NCBI RefSeq assembly: GCF_054482595.1 | Contig: NZ_CM137008.1 | Strand: one strand, 5' to 3' | DNA: 64,000 nucleotides | In this document: in pieces, positions 41,497-49,226 of the stretch | How positions within the stretch are numbered: position 1 is the first letter of the stretch | Layout: each line of letters opens with the position of its first letter | Position numbers and translations under genes: made by a program | The notes under the pieces: generated by a model | The model's database searches: none | What the model was told of the DNA's origin: nothing | What the model saw: only the letters and a program-made list of their open reading frames with translations

Positions 41497-42315
41497 TCAG
41501 CGCAGGCTCTCCAGCATCGTTTCTGCCATCACCCACAATGCGCGATTGAGCTTAATGTCGGTATCAATGCTGTGAATGGCCCGGGTATGGATACGTTTTC
41601 CTTTTGCACTGCGACCGGAAATCCCGCCTTTCAGCATATTCTCCTGGATGGTCTGATATGCGCTCCACAGGTCCTTACCGTAATCCTCCCGGCGTCGCGG
41701 CGTCAGAATGTCGGCGGTGGTGACGGGCTGATGTTCGTCACCATAACGGTAAGTCAGTGCCGCCTGTGCCAGCGCCTGGCGTGCCGGTGGCGGCAGGACC
41801 AGCGACTGCATGGCATCACGCTTCTCCTCTATCCGGTCAAACACGCCCACCACCTCGTAAGCCCCTTCGATAACTTTCTCCACTACATTTCCCCGGTGTG
41901 GAACACGCACTTCCCCCAGAGACTGGCCACAGACGCACCCGTTCTGGCAGACGAACCTGAAGTAACCCGGCAGCATCTGGTAGCTGGAGGTACCGTCATG
42001 AGAGTTGAGCAGAATAATTTCAGGGACATGTTCTCCGTTTATCTCTCCGGCCCGCCGCAGACGCAGCATGTGTTTTGTGTATCCCCGGCGGCCCGGGTCG
42101 CGCACACGGGTCTGGCAGGCGAAGAACGGCTGAAAGCCTTCCCGCTGCAGATTTTCCAGGACGGTAATGGTGGGAATGTACGCATACCGTTCACTGCGGG
42201 AGGTATGCCGGTCTTCCCCAAAAATACTGGGTACATAGTGCATCAGTTCTTCGTGTGTCAGCGGACGGTCACGGCGTATCTGGTTTACATGACCAAAACG
42301 ACTTGCTAATCGCAT
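41497..42315 (-). CDS. DUF932-family protein (YafZ/YfjQ-like island backbone protein)
   Basis: 272 aa; position and composition match the DUF932 gene of CP4-6/CP4-57-type islands; assigned from memory of the family. Confidence 0.55.
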   Translation of the reverse strand: MRLASRFGHVNQIRRDRPLTHEELMHYVPSIFGEDRHTSRSERYAYIPTITVLENLQREGFQPFFACQTRVRDPGRRGYTKHMLRLRRAGEINGEHVPEIILLNSHDGTSSYQMLPGYFRFVCQNGCVCGQSLGEVRVPHRGNVVEKVIEGAYEVVGVFDRIEEKRDAMQSLVLPPPARQALAQAALTYRYGDEHQPVTTADILTPRRREDYGKDLWSAYQTIQENMLKGGISGRSAKGKRIHTRAIHSIDTDIKLNRALWVMAETMLESLR

Positions 42316-42349: not shown

Positions 42350-42381
42350 TGAAAAAGCTGCGTCTCCCGGAGAAGACGCGG
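42350..42381 (-). terminator. Rho-independent terminator downstream of the cargo operon
   Basis: Minus strand gcgtcttctccgggagacgc followed by agcttttt; separates the cargo genes from the DUF932 backbone gene. Confidence 0.45.
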
Positions 42382-42525
42382 CCTGACGGGTGAAATGAAT
42401 AAGGTTTATTGTCTGAGAGGCCTTTCACTGGCGAGCCACGCATTAAGCGGCTTTCCGGTAACAATGGCTGGGGCTGTATTTACCTTTGATATTAATAATG
42501 TGCAGAGAAACGCATGGTTTACTCC

Positions 42526-42936
42526 TTAGATTTTAAGTTTGTCCTGGGCTACAACGACAGGTTTTCCGGATGTGTCGATGACTCCTACCGTCGGTACGCC
42601 ATTTTTGATTTCGAAGAACGGTTTGTTGCTACCTGAGCACAGTTGATTGTCCCCGTATTCAATCATTTGTGCTTTCCCGGTTTTCAGGTTAACTACCGAG
42701 ACAGTGTAGTCGTAGCACCAGGCACCACCACGTTCAAGCACGAAAACATAGCTGTTATCTTTATAGTTGAACTGATTCTTTGTCTGGCAATTCATACCGT
42801 CAATCTCAGTACAGGAAAACGCTTCTGTAGTATTAACGTATTTGATGTTATTTGGCAGTTTTACTTGTTTCGCAGTAGCGAAGACAGAGAACAGAATAGT
42901 TACAGCAACGAGTAAAGTTTTGATAAAAGTTTTCAT
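42526..42936 (-). CDS. Small exported protein with signal peptide, unknown function
   Basis: 136 aa; N-terminal signal peptide (MKTFIKTLLVAVTILFSVFATA), 5 Cys, AT-rich codon usage unlike the flanking genes. Confidence 0.5.
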   Translation of the reverse strand: MKTFIKTLLVAVTILFSVFATAKQVKLPNNIKYVNTTEAFSCTEIDGMNCQTKNQFNYKDNSYVFVLERGGAWCYDYTVSVVNLKTGKAQMIEYGDNQLCSGSNKPFFEIKNGVPTVGVIDTSGKPVVVAQDKLKI

Positions 42937-42951
42937 GATAGACTCCTTAAA

Positions 42952-43440
42952 TTAGTTAACCGCAGCTACGTAGTTTTTCACCAGATACGCGAATTCATGC
43001 ACGCCAATTTCACCGAACCAAACCAGGTAGGCCGGGTCATCTAAACCAAAGTAACGGTAGCCAACAACTTCATGGGTTTTTGGGTTATAGAGTGTTACGA
43101 TAAAGTCCCAGCCGCAGGTATTGGCTTTGCAACCGTCGCCCTGGAGCCAGACTGTACCGTTAATGTTTACTGGCGTGATACCTCCACCAGGGCCATCCAT
43201 ATAGCCGCCTTTACCGAACATGCCGCTCAGTCCGACCGGTTTTAATGCTTTGTCGATAGCGGCTTTGTAGGTAGCGTCACCTTCGTACAACTCGTACGTT
43301 GATGGACACGCTCCAGGTTGTTCAGCCCAGGCTTCCGGGTTACAACTAAGTGCTTGTTTTACGGTAGCCGCTTCTGCGTTAAAGTTAAAGCCCGTGAACA
43401 GAACCGCCAGAAATAACATAAGGGTATGTAAACGTTTCAT
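42952..43440 (-). CDS. Exported protein, possible Ivy-family (inhibitor of vertebrate lysozyme-like) protein
   Basis: Start set at MKRLHTLMLFLAVLFTGFNFNAEA (signal peptide). Motif GCKANTCGWDFIVTLY resembles the Ivy CKPHDCG loop but lacks the His. The same frame stays open upstream to 43743 with a second signal-like segment from 43635. Confidence 0.4.
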   Translation of the reverse strand: MKRLHTLMLFLAVLFTGFNFNAEAATVKQALSCNPEAWAEQPGACPSTYELYEGDATYKAAIDKALKPVGLSGMFGKGGYMDGPGGGITPVNINGTVWLQGDGCKANTCGWDFIVTLYNPKTHEVVGYRYFGLDDPAYLVWFGEIGVHEFAYLVKNYVAAVN

Positions 43441-43770
43441 TGTAAATATTCTTCCGTTGTAAATGGCGCTGGAAAATTTCTCATCAGTGAAACCTTCCGG
43501 AAGTTTCCCCCCCTTGTATGATGTATATCGCCAGTATTTTATTTCATCCCGGCTGTAATTTTTATATTCCCCGGCACGTGCAATAACGCTGACCAGAGAT
43601 ATAAGGCTCATTAATAACTTTACAGGTAATTTCATAATTAAATTTCCAGTGAGTGAATTGACAGGTGAGGGGTAAAACTTTCTCTCAGGTAATATATATC
43701 TGAAAATATTTTCAATAACACCAGACAGGAAAAACACCACCACAGGCGGTGGCGTTTCTTTGGGGCGTCT

Positions 43771-44841
43771 TTATTTAATCCGGGCCATCGCGTTTCTCAG
43801 TGCCAAATCTGCCTCTTCCGTTATATCCAGGCTTTTCTGCAATACCGCCTCTGACCGGGTCAGTGCCTGACGTGCTGCCAGCGGTTTCCGGATATGCTCC
43901 ATCGCCAGCATCGTGTCTTCATAGCCCTGCTGACGCCAGGCGTCGGTATGTGCCGATGTAAAACTGAGCAGACCGCCGCTGTTGCCACCATCACCTGCAT
44001 ATTTCAGCCTTTTCCGGGGACGGATCTCAAGGATTGTGGTGTCCGGAAAAGCCTGGCGATCCCATAAAGAACCGTCACTCAGATGCGTCACAATCACCAT
44101 ATTGCATCCGGCATCGACCAGAGGCGTCACAGGGGTATTTCCCTGCATATTTCGCCATCCTCCCATACCACCATCACCGAACATTGTCCCCTGAACCTCA
44201 CGGGGACGGAACAGCAGGGGCAGCGCGGCTGACGCAAGCAGAGCCTCTTTCTGCTGTCCGCGGGGCAGGCTCTGGATATGCTGAAAAACGGCGTTTTTCG
44301 TGGTTCCGACACCCAGTTCAGCACGAATGCAGTCAATAATATCCTGCATGCCCCCTTCTGTGGGGTACAGCGACACATACAGCGGTAGCCCGTCTGCCAG
44401 AGCATCAGTATCAAGATAATGATCCATCAGCGCTGTCAGGGGCTCATCTGACAACAACGGCTGAGCCATCAGATTGTCAAACCCGTTGATTGTCGATATA
44501 TGGCGAAGAAGCGTCGTAAGCAGTGCTCCTGCACGTCCGGGGATCTGGCAGAGGTTCATTGCCTGGAACAATTTTTTCAGCAATGAAAAGTAAACCAATC
44601 TGTTTACCGACAGCACCTGATTATTCCCCAGATGATCCCAGAGCGCCTCCAGGCGTACGGCAGCTTCTGACAGATCGGGAGAGGCCGCGATAATGGCACC
44701 ATTGAATGCGCCAATGCTGGCCCCTGAAACCATGCTGATCTGTGTACCACACTCTGCCAGTGCCTTAACCACTCCCGCCTGATAAGCGCCCACCGCCCCG
44801 CCACCGGACAGCACCAGCCCCGTTTTCATTTCTGTACTCAT
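43771..44841 (-). CDS. Patatin-like phospholipase
   Basis: 356 aa; Gly-rich oxyanion loop LVLSGGGAVGAYQAG, nucleophile elbow VSGASIGAF (GxSxG), catalytic Asp in FGDGGM (DGG); no signal peptide; start ATG overlaps the upstream stop (ATGA). Confidence 0.8.
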   Translation of the reverse strand: MSTEMKTGLVLSGGGAVGAYQAGVVKALAECGTQISMVSGASIGAFNGAIIAASPDLSEAAVRLEALWDHLGNNQVLSVNRLVYFSLLKKLFQAMNLCQIPGRAGALLTTLLRHISTINGFDNLMAQPLLSDEPLTALMDHYLDTDALADGLPLYVSLYPTEGGMQDIIDCIRAELGVGTTKNAVFQHIQSLPRGQQKEALLASAALPLLFRPREVQGTMFGDGGMGGWRNMQGNTPVTPLVDAGCNMVIVTHLSDGSLWDRQAFPDTTILEIRPRKRLKYAGDGGNSGGLLSFTSAHTDAWRQQGYEDTMLAMEHIRKPLAARQALTRSEAVLQKSLDITEEADLALRNAMARIK

Positions 44842-45743
44842 GCAGCCCCCTTCTGAAATATTTCATCGACCATACTTTCAGAGAGGCGTTCTGCAGAGCA
44901 GAGGCGAGGCATGCGAACCGGTAAGTGTTCTGCAGCCTGCGTGGTTGACCAGATCACCGGATGCTGCTCTTCACTGCACCAGTCTCCCAGCCAGTTAATC
45001 GCGTCATGCCACTCGTTATCTGCCTGCTCCCGGCCCTGACCACCAAGCCAGTCCAGAGTGTTCAGACGCACGGTTGCACTACCGCCACTCTCCTGTGCCA
45101 TCTGCGTTAATGCTTTATGTCTGAGAATATCCAGTAGCTGGTTAACCTGGCCTGTTTCGCCCTGACGTATCACATCACCAAACGCGCCCCAGCGAAGCTC
45201 TTCAAGTGCCACATAACAACGTCCGGCAGGGGAAAATGACGCATATCGCCCGGCGCTCCACCATGAGAATATCTGCTCAAGATGTAACTGCGCCCGCTGA
45301 ACCTGGTCAACACGGTGGAGTTTTTCTTCAAGATGATTCAGTTTATGGTGAACCTGATCGGCCAGGGTGAGTAACTGCTCCCGCGTATCTGCGGAATAAT
45401 GCGCCAGCCTGGCTGTATCACTGACCAGTGAACTGACCCTGTCGTTTACCCGGGTAATCGCGTAGTTTGTGGTGGCAAGTGACGTTGTCATCTCCGTCAG
45501 CCAGCGCAGGGACGCCTCAACGCCCTGTGCAAGCGACGCATTGATGGCATTCTGCCGTGCAGCGCCTTCGCCGGTCAGCCCCTCTTTTAAACGCCGGAAG
45601 AACGTGCGCTCTCCGGCCGTGCGGATATGCTCCTGTGCAACATCGATTCCGTTTGCGAAATCAACCACAAATTTTTCAGGAAGACAGGTGAGTACCTGAC
45701 ATACCCGGTTATCAGCAATTTGTTGAATAAATGGTGAAGTCAC
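44838..45743 (-). CDS. Helical/coiled-coil protein of unknown function, translationally coupled partner of the dynamin-like GTPase
   Basis: 301 aa, no nucleotide-binding motif; ATGA overlaps at both ends (45740-45743 and 44838-44841). Confidence 0.6.
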   Translation of the reverse strand: MTSPFIQQIADNRVCQVLTCLPEKFVVDFANGIDVAQEHIRTAGERTFFRRLKEGLTGEGAARQNAINASLAQGVEASLRWLTEMTTSLATTNYAITRVNDRVSSLVSDTARLAHYSADTREQLLTLADQVHHKLNHLEEKLHRVDQVQRAQLHLEQIFSWWSAGRYASFSPAGRCYVALEELRWGAFGDVIRQGETGQVNQLLDILRHKALTQMAQESGGSATVRLNTLDWLGGQGREQADNEWHDAINWLGDWCSEEQHPVIWSTTQAAEHLPVRMPRLCSAERLSESMVDEIFQKGAA

Positions 45744-48136
45744 AGCATTGTCTCCAGCTCTTCCCTCAGCGCCTTACTGTCAGTAATGAGCTCAGGAACC
45801 CTTTCATTTAATGCCTGAAGTCGCCCGGTAAGTCGTTCCTGCGCCTGCTGATCGCGTTTATGATCCTCAGAGCTCTGAATCAGCGTGTTACGCAGTTGTT
45901 CAACTTTCTCCCTGAATGCGCAGAAAAAGGCATCGATTTCCTGGCGGACGGGCTGGTTAATATCCTGCTCAATGGATGCCTGCAGCTCCCCGAAATATGC
46001 CCGGGTCAGTGACATAACTTCCTCTCTGACCTTGTTGATATTGATCACGCTGCGACTCACATCCTCGTCATAGTTTTCCCAGCCCAGGTCACTGGTGCCA
46101 AACCATCGACAAACGGTTCCCCATACGCCACTCTGCCGACGGCGACGGGTGACGGTCTCCGTTCTTTCCTCCATAAGCGCACTCAGATTTATTTTTACCG
46201 CGAGCCGGGTCTGTAACTGGCTGACTGCCGGAAAACTGATTTTTACGGTAAAGCCCTCATCCTCCAGGCGGGCATTGATGCGACCGGCAATGTTTTCTGT
46301 GGCGTACAGGGCCGTGCCACGAAAACCTGTTTCAATCCCGCTGACGATTTTCTCCAGCTCAGGCCGGAACTGTGCTTCAGCCTCACGGTGCAGGCTGGTC
46401 ACGGTCGATTCGATTTGCGTCATCAGTTCAAGGGCTTCCCTGCGATCACTGAATTTTATTTCGGGGCTGTCCGGGGCAAAATCTCGTTTCCTGTAATCCT
46501 CCCGGCCCTGGTTGTTGATACCGGACCATTGAGAAATTTTCCCCCATAATCCGGACTGAGACCTTCGTTGTTCTGCGTCTTCTTCCTCCAGCATTTGCTG
46601 TTCTTTGCGTTTACCGCTTCTGAAATAGTCATTCAGCTCCTCTTCCAGTGAGGTGCAGACCCCCGTCAGTAATTCCCGGGTTTTAGTATCGATCTCCTCC
46701 ATGGCCATTCTGACATCAGTGGTCATCTGCTCCTGACAGTCCGCGATTTCCCGGATATCCGCAAGCAGGCTGGTGATATGCGACTGCAGTGACTGAATGC
46801 TTTGCTGTAGCCCCTGATGGCGTAACAACAGGTATTCACTGATATTTTCTGCATTCTGCATCAGTTTTGCGGCGGCAGAGTCAACCGCCAGTGCCGCAGC
46901 TCTGGAATGTGAGCTCTGTATGACTTCCGTTATCAGTTGATCGATAAGTGAGCCTTCCCACAGGTCTGTCGCCCCTTCAGTTGCCAGTTCACTGTCTTTA
47001 CAGACGTATTCTTTTTTCATGCAACCGAAGGCACCTCTGATAAAATCATCGACCCAGGCTTCATCAACAGGAAGGGTTCCGTTTTTCCGTAACTCATGAA
47101 GCGCACGGTTAGCCAGGTATGCCTGGCGTGAGGATCCGGGATAAACGCGGGAGGCGGGCAGCACATCGCTGTTCAGCATTGCCGGAACTTTCTGGCGTAC
47201 GGCATCTGCCCCATCGCCATTGCGGTCTTTCTCATCAAATTTATTGACCAGTACAAACAGGCGGCCGGCTGATACGTCAGCAATGGCATTAAGCTCTTTA
47301 CGGACGTCTTCATCCGCTTTTGAGTTCATCTGGGTGTAATCCATCACAGCCAGAACCGCAGAGGCTTTCTGCAGTTGATCCCGCATCATCACTTCCATCT
47401 GCGGTTGTCCGGCCTCATTAGGGCCGGGGGTATCCAGCAGTGTGAGTGTTCCCTGGCATGCATCCATCCCCACCAGATGGCTGAATTCCACGTCGATCAC
47501 CGGCAGTTTCTGCACTTCTGCGTATTCATCAAAAGGAAATTCAGTCCCCATTGCCGCAGCAAGACGAACCAGATCGTTTAACGATGCCAGTCCGGTAAAG
47601 ATTTCCTCCTCCCCGTGGTATTCATTTTTGAGCCAGCCATCATCCGTCAGAATATCCAGCAGTTCGCGGGTATCCCCGGTTTGCTGCAGGGTCTGTGCGA
47701 CCTGCTGTCCTGCCGGGGTGGCGAGTTTTTCCTGCAGTGTGATTAATAAATTGCGGACAGGCTGAATATGTTCCAGATGGAGAACCGGCTCAGTTTTTCC
47801 GGGAACGTGGCGGATGAGCGTCGGTACAGAGGTCATGGGGCGGTTACGGTTAGGCAGAATTTCCTGCCCCACAATGGCATTGATGGTGGTTGATTTGCCT
47901 GCTTTCATCGTGCCGACAACAGCCAGCACCATCTCCCTGCGGGCGGTTTTGATTTGTTCGCCCTCCAGCTCCTCAATTCTTTTCAGTGCTTTCTGTTTAT
48001 CAAAAAGCAGTCTGTTTTCGTTCTTACTGTCAGATAACACATCTGGCTCCTCAACCATTTGCCGGAGCAGATTAATGTTCAGTTGCAAAAGTCGGTCGGC
48101 TTCATCACAAAGCAGGGCGATGTTCTTTTCGTGCAT
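45740..48136 (-). CDS. Dynamin-like large GTPase (bacterial dynamin-like protein family)
   Basis: 798 aa; G1 P-loop VVGTMKAGKSTTINAI, G3 LLDTPGPNE, G4 VLVNKFDEK, then about 500 aa of helical/coiled-coil sequence; AGGAAGG Shine-Dalgarno 7 nt upstream of the ATG. Confidence 0.8.
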   Translation of the reverse strand: MHEKNIALLCDEADRLLQLNINLLRQMVEEPDVLSDSKNENRLLFDKQKALKRIEELEGEQIKTARREMVLAVVGTMKAGKSTTINAIVGQEILPNRNRPMTSVPTLIRHVPGKTEPVLHLEHIQPVRNLLITLQEKLATPAGQQVAQTLQQTGDTRELLDILTDDGWLKNEYHGEEEIFTGLASLNDLVRLAAAMGTEFPFDEYAEVQKLPVIDVEFSHLVGMDACQGTLTLLDTPGPNEAGQPQMEVMMRDQLQKASAVLAVMDYTQMNSKADEDVRKELNAIADVSAGRLFVLVNKFDEKDRNGDGADAVRQKVPAMLNSDVLPASRVYPGSSRQAYLANRALHELRKNGTLPVDEAWVDDFIRGAFGCMKKEYVCKDSELATEGATDLWEGSLIDQLITEVIQSSHSRAAALAVDSAAAKLMQNAENISEYLLLRHQGLQQSIQSLQSHITSLLADIREIADCQEQMTTDVRMAMEEIDTKTRELLTGVCTSLEEELNDYFRSGKRKEQQMLEEEDAEQRRSQSGLWGKISQWSGINNQGREDYRKRDFAPDSPEIKFSDRREALELMTQIESTVTSLHREAEAQFRPELEKIVSGIETGFRGTALYATENIAGRINARLEDEGFTVKISFPAVSQLQTRLAVKINLSALMEERTETVTRRRRQSGVWGTVCRWFGTSDLGWENYDEDVSRSVININKVREEVMSLTRAYFGELQASIEQDINQPVRQEIDAFFCAFREKVEQLRNTLIQSSEDHKRDQQAQERLTGRLQALNERVPELITDSKALREELETML

Positions 48137-48193
48137 TATTTAACCTTCCTAAGACGCATTTTCATGACAACCACGGAGGAGGTCATTCACTAC

Positions 48194-48236
48194 AAACGAT
48201 CGTTTATAACGATCGATATGATAGTAACGATCGATG
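48194..48236. promoter_or_regulatory. Cluster of three GATC-containing AACGATCG boxes upstream of the dynamin operon (candidate Dam/OxyR phase-variation switch)
   Basis: aaacgatcgttt-ataacgatcgat-atgatagtaacgatcgatg; GATC at 48198, 48211 and 48229, 60-100 bp upstream of the dynamin start codon, in the slot corresponding to the yeeP-flu intergenic region. Confidence 0.4.
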
Positions 48237-48353
48237 TATTCTATTAACTTGAGAAACACAACGCAAGGGGACAACCCGGGTATGGCTGCGTTTGCATAGT
48301 GTTTTCATGGAGTTAAAAATCTGTAACAACAGCCTGGTACATCACCACCGGGT

Positions 48354-49226
48354 TCAGAAGAAAATCCAGTTCCATACCGCGCGGGCAACAGAGACCACCG
48401 AGTCACGGACGGCGCGCAGAACCGTGCGTGCAACAGAGGCAATGCAGACGCTCTCCGCCGTGTCAAATATCCGGTCCACCGCACCGGTAAACTGTTCACG
48501 GGCCTGAGACCGGACAGACTCCGTGCGCAGCTCGTCCTGCAGGCGGGTCATCAGGGGACTGGCGGCATGGTCGGGAAGTGCTGTCATGAGCGCACTGACC
48601 AGCGTATCCAGTTCCCAGCCGGTGCGGGCCGATACGGCAACAACCCGATGTACGGGCCGGAACAGACGGAATACCGCCTCCGTTTTTTCGCGAATGTTCT
48701 GTGCCTGTGCGGGAGAAGGCTGAATACCGGCCATATCCCATTCATGGCAGGGCTCCGTTTTATCGGCCTGCATCACCACAAACAGTACCCGCTGATGTCC
48801 CCGGTGCAGGATGTGTCGCCAGAAATACTCATCCACAGACAGGGCACGGTCATCGGCTTTAATCAGCCACAGTACCAGGTCCAGTTCGGGCAGAATGTCA
48901 CGGTACAGGGCTTCATACTCTGCATCCCTGTCCCGGCTCTCGCCCACCCCGGGCAGGTCAGTGATAACCATGCTGTGACCATGGCCATTCAGACGGAAGC
49001 GCTGCACTTCCCGGGTGCCGGCGTGAACATCACTGACCGGGGTGACCTCCCCCTGAAACAGCGCATTACAGAGTGAGGATTTACCGGCCCCGCTTTTCCC
49101 CATAATGCCAATCACGGGTTCGTGACTGGTGAGTTTGCGCAGATGTTCCAGGATGTGACGGGAAAGTGAGTAAGGCAGGGAGGAGAGCGGTTTTTCGATT
49201 GCCTCAATGGCATCAGACGGATTCAT
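48354..49226 (-). CDS. yeeP: YeeP/YfjP/YkfA-family small GTPase (island backbone)
   Basis: P-loop GIMGKSGAGKSSLCNAL, G3 ITDLPGVGE, G4 VMQADKTE; start set at MNPSDAIEAIEK (GGGAA Shine-Dalgarno), about 290 aa. Confidence 0.7.
   Translation of the reverse strand: MNPSDAIEAIEKPLSSLPYSLSRHILEHLRKLTSHEPVIGIMGKSGAGKSSLCNALFQGEVTPVSDVHAGTREVQRFRLNGHGHSMVITDLPGVGESRDRDAEYEALYRDILPELDLVLWLIKADDRALSVDEYFWRHILHRGHQRVLFVVMQADKTEPCHEWDMAGIQPSPAQAQNIREKTEAVFRLFRPVHRVVAVSARTGWELDTLVSALMTALPDHAASPLMTRLQDELRTESVRSQAREQFTGAVDRIFDTAESVCIASVARTVLRAVRDSVVSVARAVWNWIFF

Follow-up and report, generated by a model that had tools for sequence, protein, structure and literature searches.

Proteins of the Ivy family inhibit c-type lysozyme and, in vitro, lytic transglycosylases as well (PMC10139938, PMC3660660). 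On the phage side, T4 encodes Spackle (gp61.3), a periplasmic protein that inhibits the gp5 tail lysozyme and thereby excludes superinfecting phage (PMC7677548, PMC7650644). In a preprint (bioRxiv 10.1101/2024.04.20.590424), an Ivy-like protein with a 'CKANTC' loop, Hypo_04657, was described in Escherichia coli O121, and its knockdown by CRISPR interference (CRISPRi) was reported to improve T7 plating. Here we report a computational analysis of two adjacent small genes, termed A and B, in a 64,000-nucleotide stretch of E. coli DNA (NCBI RefSeq assembly GCF_054482595.1, contig NZ_CM137008.1; below, the window), both of which carry the RefSeq label 'hypothetical protein'. As judged from profile comparisons and a structure model, gene A encodes a true but very divergent Ivy-family protein, and as judged from gene order the A-B cassette derives from jumbo phages. 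A preliminary description of the window, made from its letters alone, had drawn attention to both genes; its observations are partly confirmed and its interpretation partly supported by the results below. The features of gene A are the following.

42952..43440, minus strand: gene A, an open reading frame (ORF) for a 162-residue predicted exported protein, a divergent Ivy-family member; the start is ATG 43440 (MKRL...).

43369..43440, minus strand: predicted signal peptide of gene A, residues 1-24, MKRLHTLMLFLAVLFTGFNFNAEA followed by ATVK, assigned by its hydrophobic core and AXA motif and modelled with a low predicted local distance difference test (pLDDT) score.

43111..43131, minus strand: the CKANTCG loop (residues 104-110), which corresponds to the inhibitory CKPHDCG loop of Ivy by hidden Markov model alignment, the family motif C-x-x-H-N-C-G falling on CKPHDCG of the E. 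coli Ivy structure 1GPQ.

Direct searches with gene A gave little (NCBIfam Ivy at E=0.19; only noise with phmmer against PDB sequences), and its close homologues are all from E. coli, with identity down to 57%. A profile built from 12 of these close homologues (the E. coli-clade profile), searched against 1.84 billion representative proteins, returned 58 matches at E<=0.001, including full-length distant relatives (E=1e-21 to 1e-4), the loop of which reads C-[EKQ]-x-H-[ND]-C-[GSP]. As many as 26 of the 33 aligned family members independently match the Pfam Ivy family, PF08816. A joint profile that includes these intermediates (A3) reaches E. coli Ivy (1GPQ/1XS0) at E=1.8e-13 and Pseudomonas aeruginosa Ivy (1UUZ/4PS6) at ~1e-9, with the loops aligned. 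The AlphaFold2 model of gene A (pLDDT 90, predicted template modelling score 0.82) matches the Ivy fold, a central antiparallel sheet flanked by helices. In a Foldseek search of the PDB with this model, the top eight matches are all Ivy (4PS6, 1UUZ, 1XS0, 1GPQ; probability 1.0, target TM-score 0.63-0.72), the ninth stands at E=1.0, and no structure other than Ivy falls below E=1. Transitive profile homology, both to Pfam Ivy members and to solved structures, together with this exclusive fold match, thus establishes at the level of sequence and model that gene A belongs to the Ivy family and has its fold, and the Ivy-like reading offered in the preliminary description holds for the 162-residue protein.

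The same description had noticed that the loop of this ORF resembles CKPHDCG and lacks its His. We found the loop at the position of its Ivy counterpart, with both Cys, the Lys and the Gly kept and with Pro, His and Asp all replaced; gene A does not carry the full CKPHDCG loop with its His. Abergel et al., in 2007, are said to have found that this His contacts the catalytic residues of lysozyme. Allelic variants of the loop read KANT, KANA, KAHA, KSNA and KSDA; in a common allele (P0014) it is CKAHACG, with His restored. In the alignment of 33 sequences C104 and C109 are invariant, and C33, C45, G83, Y118, G127 and G143 nearly so. In the wider subfamily the protein is longer at its N-terminus by a segment that carries another pair of Cys, C33 and C45 (the 'CPY' motif). 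Signal peptides were assigned by rule (a basic start, a hydrophobic core and an AXA site). By these rules the N-termini of both proteins, for which signal-like character had been claimed, qualify (MKR or MK, a 12-residue hydrophobic core with a Kyte-Doolittle mean of 2.5-2.9, and the cleavage motif AEA|A or ATA|K), and so does the stretch upstream of gene A, which makes three such N-termini.

The nature of this upstream stretch bears directly on the gene model. As had been pointed out, the frame of gene A stays open up to GTG 43743, 27 nt after the stop of the patatin gene, and contains a second signal-like segment, MKLPVKLLMSLISLVSVIARA from 43635, which is the start used by RefSeq/PGAP for the 227-residue WP_001361977.1. 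A choice of start sites giving isoforms had been suggested on this ground; our analysis instead identifies most of the extension as the remnant of another gene.

43441..43635, minus strand: X', all that is left of a separate gene X for a 180-residue exported protein, namely its first ~65 codons (signal peptide and ~40 residues), recognized by BLASTP and by alignment of the junction DNA; it lies inside the RefSeq coding sequence.

In other E. coli islands (L002-L005) a separate 180-residue signal-peptide gene X, followed by a decayed 128-residue gene Y, is found between patatin and gene A. By BLASTP, X' is 49% identical over 63 residues to the N-terminus of intact X (L003:5098-5640; E=4e-18). 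From the patatin stop through an adjacent hairpin (see below), the DNA of the window is nearly identical to that of the X-bearing arrangement (L003). The near-identical junction and the homology of X' to X indicate a deletion that brought codon ~60-64 of X to within ~10-15 nt of the start of gene A, with the frame preserved by chance and GGAAG left before the gene A ATG. The Shine-Dalgarno sequence of X, AAGGAG, has become TGGAAA in the window. Among three alleles X' shows no synonymous and 6-7 non-synonymous differences; by our own calculation, seven non-synonymous out of seven has a probability of ~0.2 under neutrality versus ~0.003 under the constraint seen in gene A. No intact copy of the window's X allele was found among the database matches. 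Every short allele and every jumbo-phage copy of gene A starts at MKRL. In Sec export, a protein started at 43635 would lose its first signal peptide and be held in the membrane by its second hydrophobic segment as a stop-transfer anchor, with the Ivy domain and its four cysteines left on the cytoplasmic side. Judged by the homology of X' to X, the lost Shine-Dalgarno sequence, the substitution pattern, the MKRL starts and the Sec argument, the true start of gene A is ATG 43440 and the 227-residue RefSeq model is over-extended; by the same comparisons X' is the dead N-terminus of the neighboring gene X, fused by deletion, rather than a part of a functional isoform.

The second gene of the cassette does not share the Ivy connection.

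42526..42936, minus strand: gene B, an ORF for a 136-residue predicted exported all-beta protein with four conserved Cys, matching phrog_8968 and preceded by a strong AAGGAG ribosome-binding site.

The ORF and its length had been correctly given in the preliminary description, which counted five Cys; there are four (42, 50, 74, 100). Gene B matches phrog_8968 at E=2.6e-45, while Pfam gave only noise (E>=0.3) and NCBIfam nothing relevant. In a word search its homologues are almost all from E. coli, with one partial Proteus mirabilis entry, and a scan with peptide patterns of gene B found no relative in 100,044 genomes, each standing for one species. The structure model, of moderate confidence (pLDDT 72), is all-beta with seven strands; a fold search of AFDB50 returned only uncharacterized 'secreted proteins' of E. 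coli and Salmonella, and a profile of gene B and its paralog C matched no PDB chain at E<=10. A lysozyme inhibitor of the MliC/PliC type, or of the Ivy type, both named in the earlier description, was considered for gene B and was rejected for want of any match by sequence (Pfam, NCBIfam, PDB profile) or fold, the model lacking the eight-stranded beta-barrel. By tblastn, proteins 35-37% identical to gene B occur in 40 phage records (the 12 records listed are all 233-249 kb); the two matches examined, one from a Salmonella phage and one from an Erwinia phage, both belong to the genus Seoulvirus. Gene B thus appears from sequence comparison to be a co-inherited phage protein of an orphan family. 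Gene A is widespread without gene B in other islands, so gene B is not required for gene A.

The phage connection extends to the whole cassette. An intact gene order YfjT-Y-A-B-C-158aa-202aa-SMC-like ATPase (the numbers giving protein lengths in residues) was found in a metagenome scaffold (L006), in NZ_CP173450.1 (L015) and, in the same form, in L023. The second of these, a 221,873-bp sequence from E. coli strain 98232 deposited as a plasmid (L015, L018), encodes an S80 phage prohead protease, a 2377-residue SLT transglycosylase, a 228-residue SLT protein, thyA and RNase H, by which it appears to be a phiKZ/SPN3US-like jumbo-phage genome, carried perhaps as a pseudolysogen. Its two SLT proteins have the accessions WP_404998838.1 and WP_404998812.1. 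It is syntenic with Seoulvirus phages and related to IMG/VR genomes of 220-225 kb; viral genomes of this size in IMG/VR have the same Y-A-B-C array, with gene A 59-76% identical. The order is Y-slot-B-C-166-208-SMC in SPFM16, a Salmonella phage, and in the Erwinia phage pEa_SNUABM_29. What survives in the window of the Y-A-B-C order, conserved beside the SMC-like gene, is A, B and the opening seven codons of C.

42492..42515, minus strand: remnant of gene C (AAGGAG, ATG and the seven codons MRFSAHY*), the truncated start of a 129-residue paralog of B, recognized by alignment with the B-C junctions of L015 and L006.

The B-C spacer is likewise kept after gene B. Gene C, a paralog of B, is intact in L006, L015, L023 and SPFM16 and matches phrog_5248; its neighbor Y matches phrog_9424. 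Gene A of the window is 74% identical to the L015 copy and 57% to the L006 copy; for gene B the corresponding values are 76% and 65%, with 36% to the SPFM16 homolog. A tblastn search with mature gene A found no match in 50,697 phage records, a collection that does not contain the gene-A-bearing E. coli jumbo phages present in IMG/VR. The GC content of the phages (0.44-0.47) agrees with that of the cassette and not with that of the island. Overall, the recurrent Y-A-B-C synteny, the Seoulvirus gene order with a homolog of B, the GC match and the remnant of C argue that the cassette is a decayed fragment of a jumbo-phage exported-protein array, residing in a variable cargo slot of the island. 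A separate acquisition of the small genes, proposed earlier from base composition, is in this way borne out, the source being the A-B(-C) array of jumbo-phage genomes of similar composition. The composition itself had been described as AT-rich for both genes, which applies to gene B (41.1% GC), to the upstream extension (39.0%) and to the intergenic stretch (40%), as against 54.7% for patatin and 54.1% for the RdcB-like gene; it does not apply to gene A, which at 48.9% equals the window mean (48.4%).

Some further observations concern these phage loci. At L015:7400-7900, in the phage-like replicon, the native short gene A carries a RefSeq pseudogene flag, 'missing N-terminus'; our guess is that this flag comes from comparison with the over-extended 227-residue model, in which case an annotation error is propagating. 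Upstream of the array (L006:559-4468, L015:2445-6393) five consecutive genes for proteins of 185-375 residues share a C-terminal motif, ~G-W-x-x-V-x-x-x-G-x-Q-L-L-F-x-A-D, and constitute a paralogous jumbo-phage family. The array itself opens with one or two signal-peptide proteins of the YfjT family (PF27224; L006:4598-5551, L023:5106-5567). E. coli K-12 has a yfjT gene in its CP4-57 prophage. This suggests that jumbo phages and CP4-type islands have repeatedly traded small genes for exported proteins.

Genes A and B are both real. A search of 5426 complete E. coli genomes found the cassette, over >=80% of its length, in 1880 of them, and comparisons among three alleles gave ratios of non-synonymous to synonymous rates (dN/dS) of 0.14-0.26 for gene B and 0.16-0.20 for mature gene A, which indicates purifying selection in the face of high allelic divergence (dS up to 1.5). 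The window belongs to a CP4-44-type island of E. coli, and the 1.4-kb region is 100% identical to the chromosomes of the type strain ATCC 11775, of the avian pathogenic E. coli (APEC) strain O1 and of many others. The surroundings of the cassette are as follows.

43771-44841, minus strand: patatin-like phospholipase gene, preceded in minus-strand order by genes for a YeeP-like GTPase, a dynamin-family protein and an RdcB-family protein; genes A and B follow.

43735..43751, minus strand: terminator-like hairpin with T-run directly after the patatin stop (consensus scan, seven pairs then TTTTTCC; RNAfold, -17.0 kcal/mol, 12-bp stem).

42360..42379, minus strand: terminator-like hairpin at the end of the cassette, ahead of the DUF932 gene (scan, eight pairs then T-run; RNAfold, -18.3 kcal/mol).

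41497-42315, minus strand: DUF932 gene, after gene B, followed by antirestriction, yeeS, yeeT, cbeA and cbtA genes.

The patatin-side hairpin is identical in sequence in L003, where the DUF932-side hairpin is also kept, and GTG 43743, which opens the 263-codon frame, falls inside the former. The gene pair thus has a terminator-like hairpin on either side and is no mere extension of the upstream operon; the earlier statement that it is appended to that operon is doubtful in view of a -17 kcal/mol terminator-like hairpin with T-run between patatin and the cassette. The YeeP-like GTPase, dynamin, RdcB/YjcZ-family and patatin genes (43771-49226, minus strand) are followed by different downstream cassettes in different strains; they may constitute an uncharacterized membrane-remodeling or defense module. 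In a PADLOC analysis these neighbors gave only weak matches (dynamin to LeoBC, 8e-5; patatin to a phospholipase effector, 1e-4), and no family among the PADLOC defense-system models matches gene A or gene B.

What gene A does in E. coli can be approached by analogy. Taking the evidence as a whole, we consider it on balance probable that the cassette is derived from jumbo phages, that X' is dead and that gene A is an exported Ivy-type inhibitor of a peptidoglycan glycosidase. According to this model, gene A would be translated from ATG 43440 and exported by its own signal peptide, and would fold into an Ivy-type domain with a disulfide-stapled N-terminal segment and a protruding CKANTCG loop closed by a disulfide. 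By analogy with Ivy, we infer that it may bind the active-site cleft of a periplasmic peptidoglycan glycosidase (a lysozyme or a lytic transglycosylase); the loop, devoid of Pro, His and Asp, implies that c-type lysozyme is not the enzyme bound. Most likely the targets would be muralytic enzymes brought in by phages, the outcome being a Spackle-like exclusion in which infection is hindered. More tentatively, it is possible that gene A, perhaps together with B, is a periplasmic anti-phage factor captured by E. coli islands from jumbo phages, which would plug the virion or lysis muralytic enzymes of incoming phages, with the fast-evolving loop (from KANT to KSDA) setting the targets. If so, gene A would be a chromosomal Ivy-fold counterpart of T4 Spackle and would represent a third physiological role for Ivy-type inhibitors, besides evasion of host lysozyme and autolysin control.

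Several observations weigh against this model in one or another of its parts. On the side of homology, a Pfam scan of the gene A protein gave no match even at E<=10, and the E. coli-clade profile alone reaches Ivy in the PDB only at E=1, the intermediates being needed, which means that the gene A clade has drifted far. With the His, Asp and Pro of CKPHDCG gone, the loop of gene A may inhibit nothing. E. coli Ivy itself is a weak inhibitor of lytic transglycosylases in vitro (PMC10139938). The knockdown phenotype of Hypo_04657 could be a polar effect on gene B and downstream genes, and Hypo_04657 is, by its loop motif and architecture, a candidate for the product of our locus. No sigma-70-like promoter was found by scan between the patatin hairpin and the cassette. 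Finally, the slot between Y and B in the Seoulvirus phages (L016:3487-3978; L017:3491-3988) is taken by an unrelated membrane-anchored, Cys-containing protein of 163-165 residues (examined as a hidden Ivy homolog and rejected, hhalign probability <1%). Gene A is therefore not core to the phage module, and the slot appears to be exchangeable.

Among the competing explanations, the one that survives best is that the cassette is inert, decaying phage cargo, a set of pseudogenes in the making with no present function in E. coli. The remnants X' and C' on either side, the deletion of Y and of most of X, the loss of B in other islands and the lack of a promoter detectable by scan would all be expected on this account. 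We nevertheless regard it as unlikely, given that A and B are intact in ~1880 complete genomes, that the purifying selection acting on them (dN/dS 0.14-0.26) is absent from the adjoining remnant, and that a knockdown phenotype has been reported.

It is also distinctly unlikely, in our view, that gene A is a classical host-lysozyme inhibitor, acting like chromosomal Ivy against vertebrate c-type lysozyme as a virulence or colonization factor of extraintestinal pathogenic E. coli (ExPEC) and APEC. Lytic jumbo phages, which share the gene, have no reason to counter animal lysozyme; E. coli already possesses ivy and mliC; and the loop of the window allele has lost His, Asp and Pro. These points have to be set against the Ivy fold and family membership, the occurrence of the exact sequence in APEC O1 and in many human and avian isolates, and the CKAHACG loop of the common allele P0014, where His is restored.

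Another explanation, improbable in our assessment, would make A and B orphan immunity proteins against periplasm-acting toxins of competitors (type VI muramidase effectors or lysozyme-like bacteriocins), gathered on mobile islands in the manner of acquired interbacterial-defense clusters. Their predicted character of small disulfide-bonded periplasmic proteins, their place in a variable array on a mobile island, the strong divergence of alleles (dS up to 1.5) and a family fold that is that of a peptidoglycan glycosidase inhibitor would suit such a role; yet no toxin, Rhs, VgrG or bacteriocin gene adjoins the cassette in any examined locus, and the other home of the array is in lytic jumbo phages. 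It appears very improbable that what is really made is the 227-residue protein, or one encoded by all 263 codons of the open frame, an Ivy-like protein with two signals or a membrane anchor and with isoforms set by the choice of start, since the open frame, its RefSeq annotation, the helical 'transmembrane' domain modeled in the preprint and the retention of the fusion in ~1880 genomes across alleles with an A part only 72-77% identical are outweighed by the derivation of X' from a fragment of another gene with its Shine-Dalgarno sequence lost, by the non-synonymous nature of all 6-7 substitutions in X', by the position of GTG 43743 within a terminator-like hairpin, by the cytoplasmic location in which, in Sec export, anchoring through the second hydrophobic segment would leave the Ivy domain, and by the short form of the native phage gene.

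Beyond the cassette, the family searches revealed Ivy-like domains fused to other modules (P0119, P0129, P0125, P0127, P0131). By eye, P0119 combines an Ivy-like with a caspase-like domain and P0129 has DnaJ, zinc-ribbon and membrane segments, while the others carry large N-terminal domains; the Ivy fold seems to serve as a binding module of general use in the periplasm. In another type of island a different Ivy-like gene (P0088) is located between DUF932 and RadC. Three proteins (P0088, P0089, P0124) consist of an Ivy-like domain and a C-terminal four-Cys domain with the Cys spacing of gene B, and one such fusion (L014:3795-4745) is found in a CP4-like island near RadC, CbeA/CbtA, DUF4942 and DarT/Macro. 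By hhalign, the four-Cys domain of these proteins matched gene B at first with a probability of 0.3% and, with deeper profiles, at E=0.006 with a probability of 6% and the four Cys aligned, a weak match that we do not use as evidence of coupling between A and B.

With respect to previous knowledge, the Ivy family and its fold were already described, and so was, in the 2024 preprint, the Ivy-likeness of the 'CKANTC' loop variant. New in the present work are the corrected gene model, an account of how the extension arose, the connection to Pfam Ivy through intermediates, the phage family of gene B and the jumbo-phage origin. The analysis corrects a gene model propagated by RefSeq, in which a 227-residue 'hypothetical protein' combines a 162-residue Ivy-like protein with a dead gene fragment, and assigns a family to a protein found in about one-third of complete E. 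coli genomes. The presence of this gene and its neighbor in E. coli jumbo phages as well, combined with the reported T7 knockdown phenotype, provides a concrete hypothesis, namely the periplasmic inhibition of phage muralytic enzymes. As the purpose of Ivy-type inhibitors is still debated, a phage-linked clade offers a useful new angle.

Comparison with known systems places the two genes differently. Gene B resembles MliC/PliC, PliG and PliI only in general character, these being beta-rich proteins of small size that Gram-negative bacteria export or anchor by a lipid (PMC2267010). Its closer counterparts are in the Seoulvirus/SPN3US-like jumbo phages, where phrog_8968, phrog_5248 and phrog_9424, matched by B, C and Y, occur in the same order in SPFM16 and pEa_SNUABM_29, with the difference that between Y and B these arrays have the unrelated 163-residue membrane-anchored protein instead of an Ivy-like gene. 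For gene A, the proposed working model is T4 Spackle. No similarity of sequence or fold between the two was detected in our searches, and the parallel is a functional one, between an activity demonstrated for Spackle and one that for gene A is predicted. Hypo_04657 shares the 'CKANTC' loop and an added helical 'transmembrane' part that fits the 227-residue annotated form; the preprint differs from the present account in that the extra part was not recognized as a gene remnant, no link to jumbo phages was drawn and no biochemical test was included. The closest described relatives of gene A remain the Ivy proteins themselves (E. coli YkfE/Ivy, 1GPQ/1XS0; P. aeruginosa Ivyp1/PA3902, 1UUZ/4PS6; PF08816). 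Gene A likewise encodes a predicted periplasmic protein with a signal peptide, has the same fold (Foldseek probability 1.0, TM-score ~0.7) and presents a disulfide-closed C-K-x-x-x-C-G loop at the same place between two strands, and its relatives are Pfam Ivy members. On the other hand, it is only 16-20% identical to Ivy, has no Pfam or NCBIfam match of its own, reads KANT in the loop where Ivy reads KPHD, and has an added N-terminal segment with the C33/C45 pair; and whereas Ivy occupies a core chromosomal locus, gene A is found in jumbo phages and on a mobile island.

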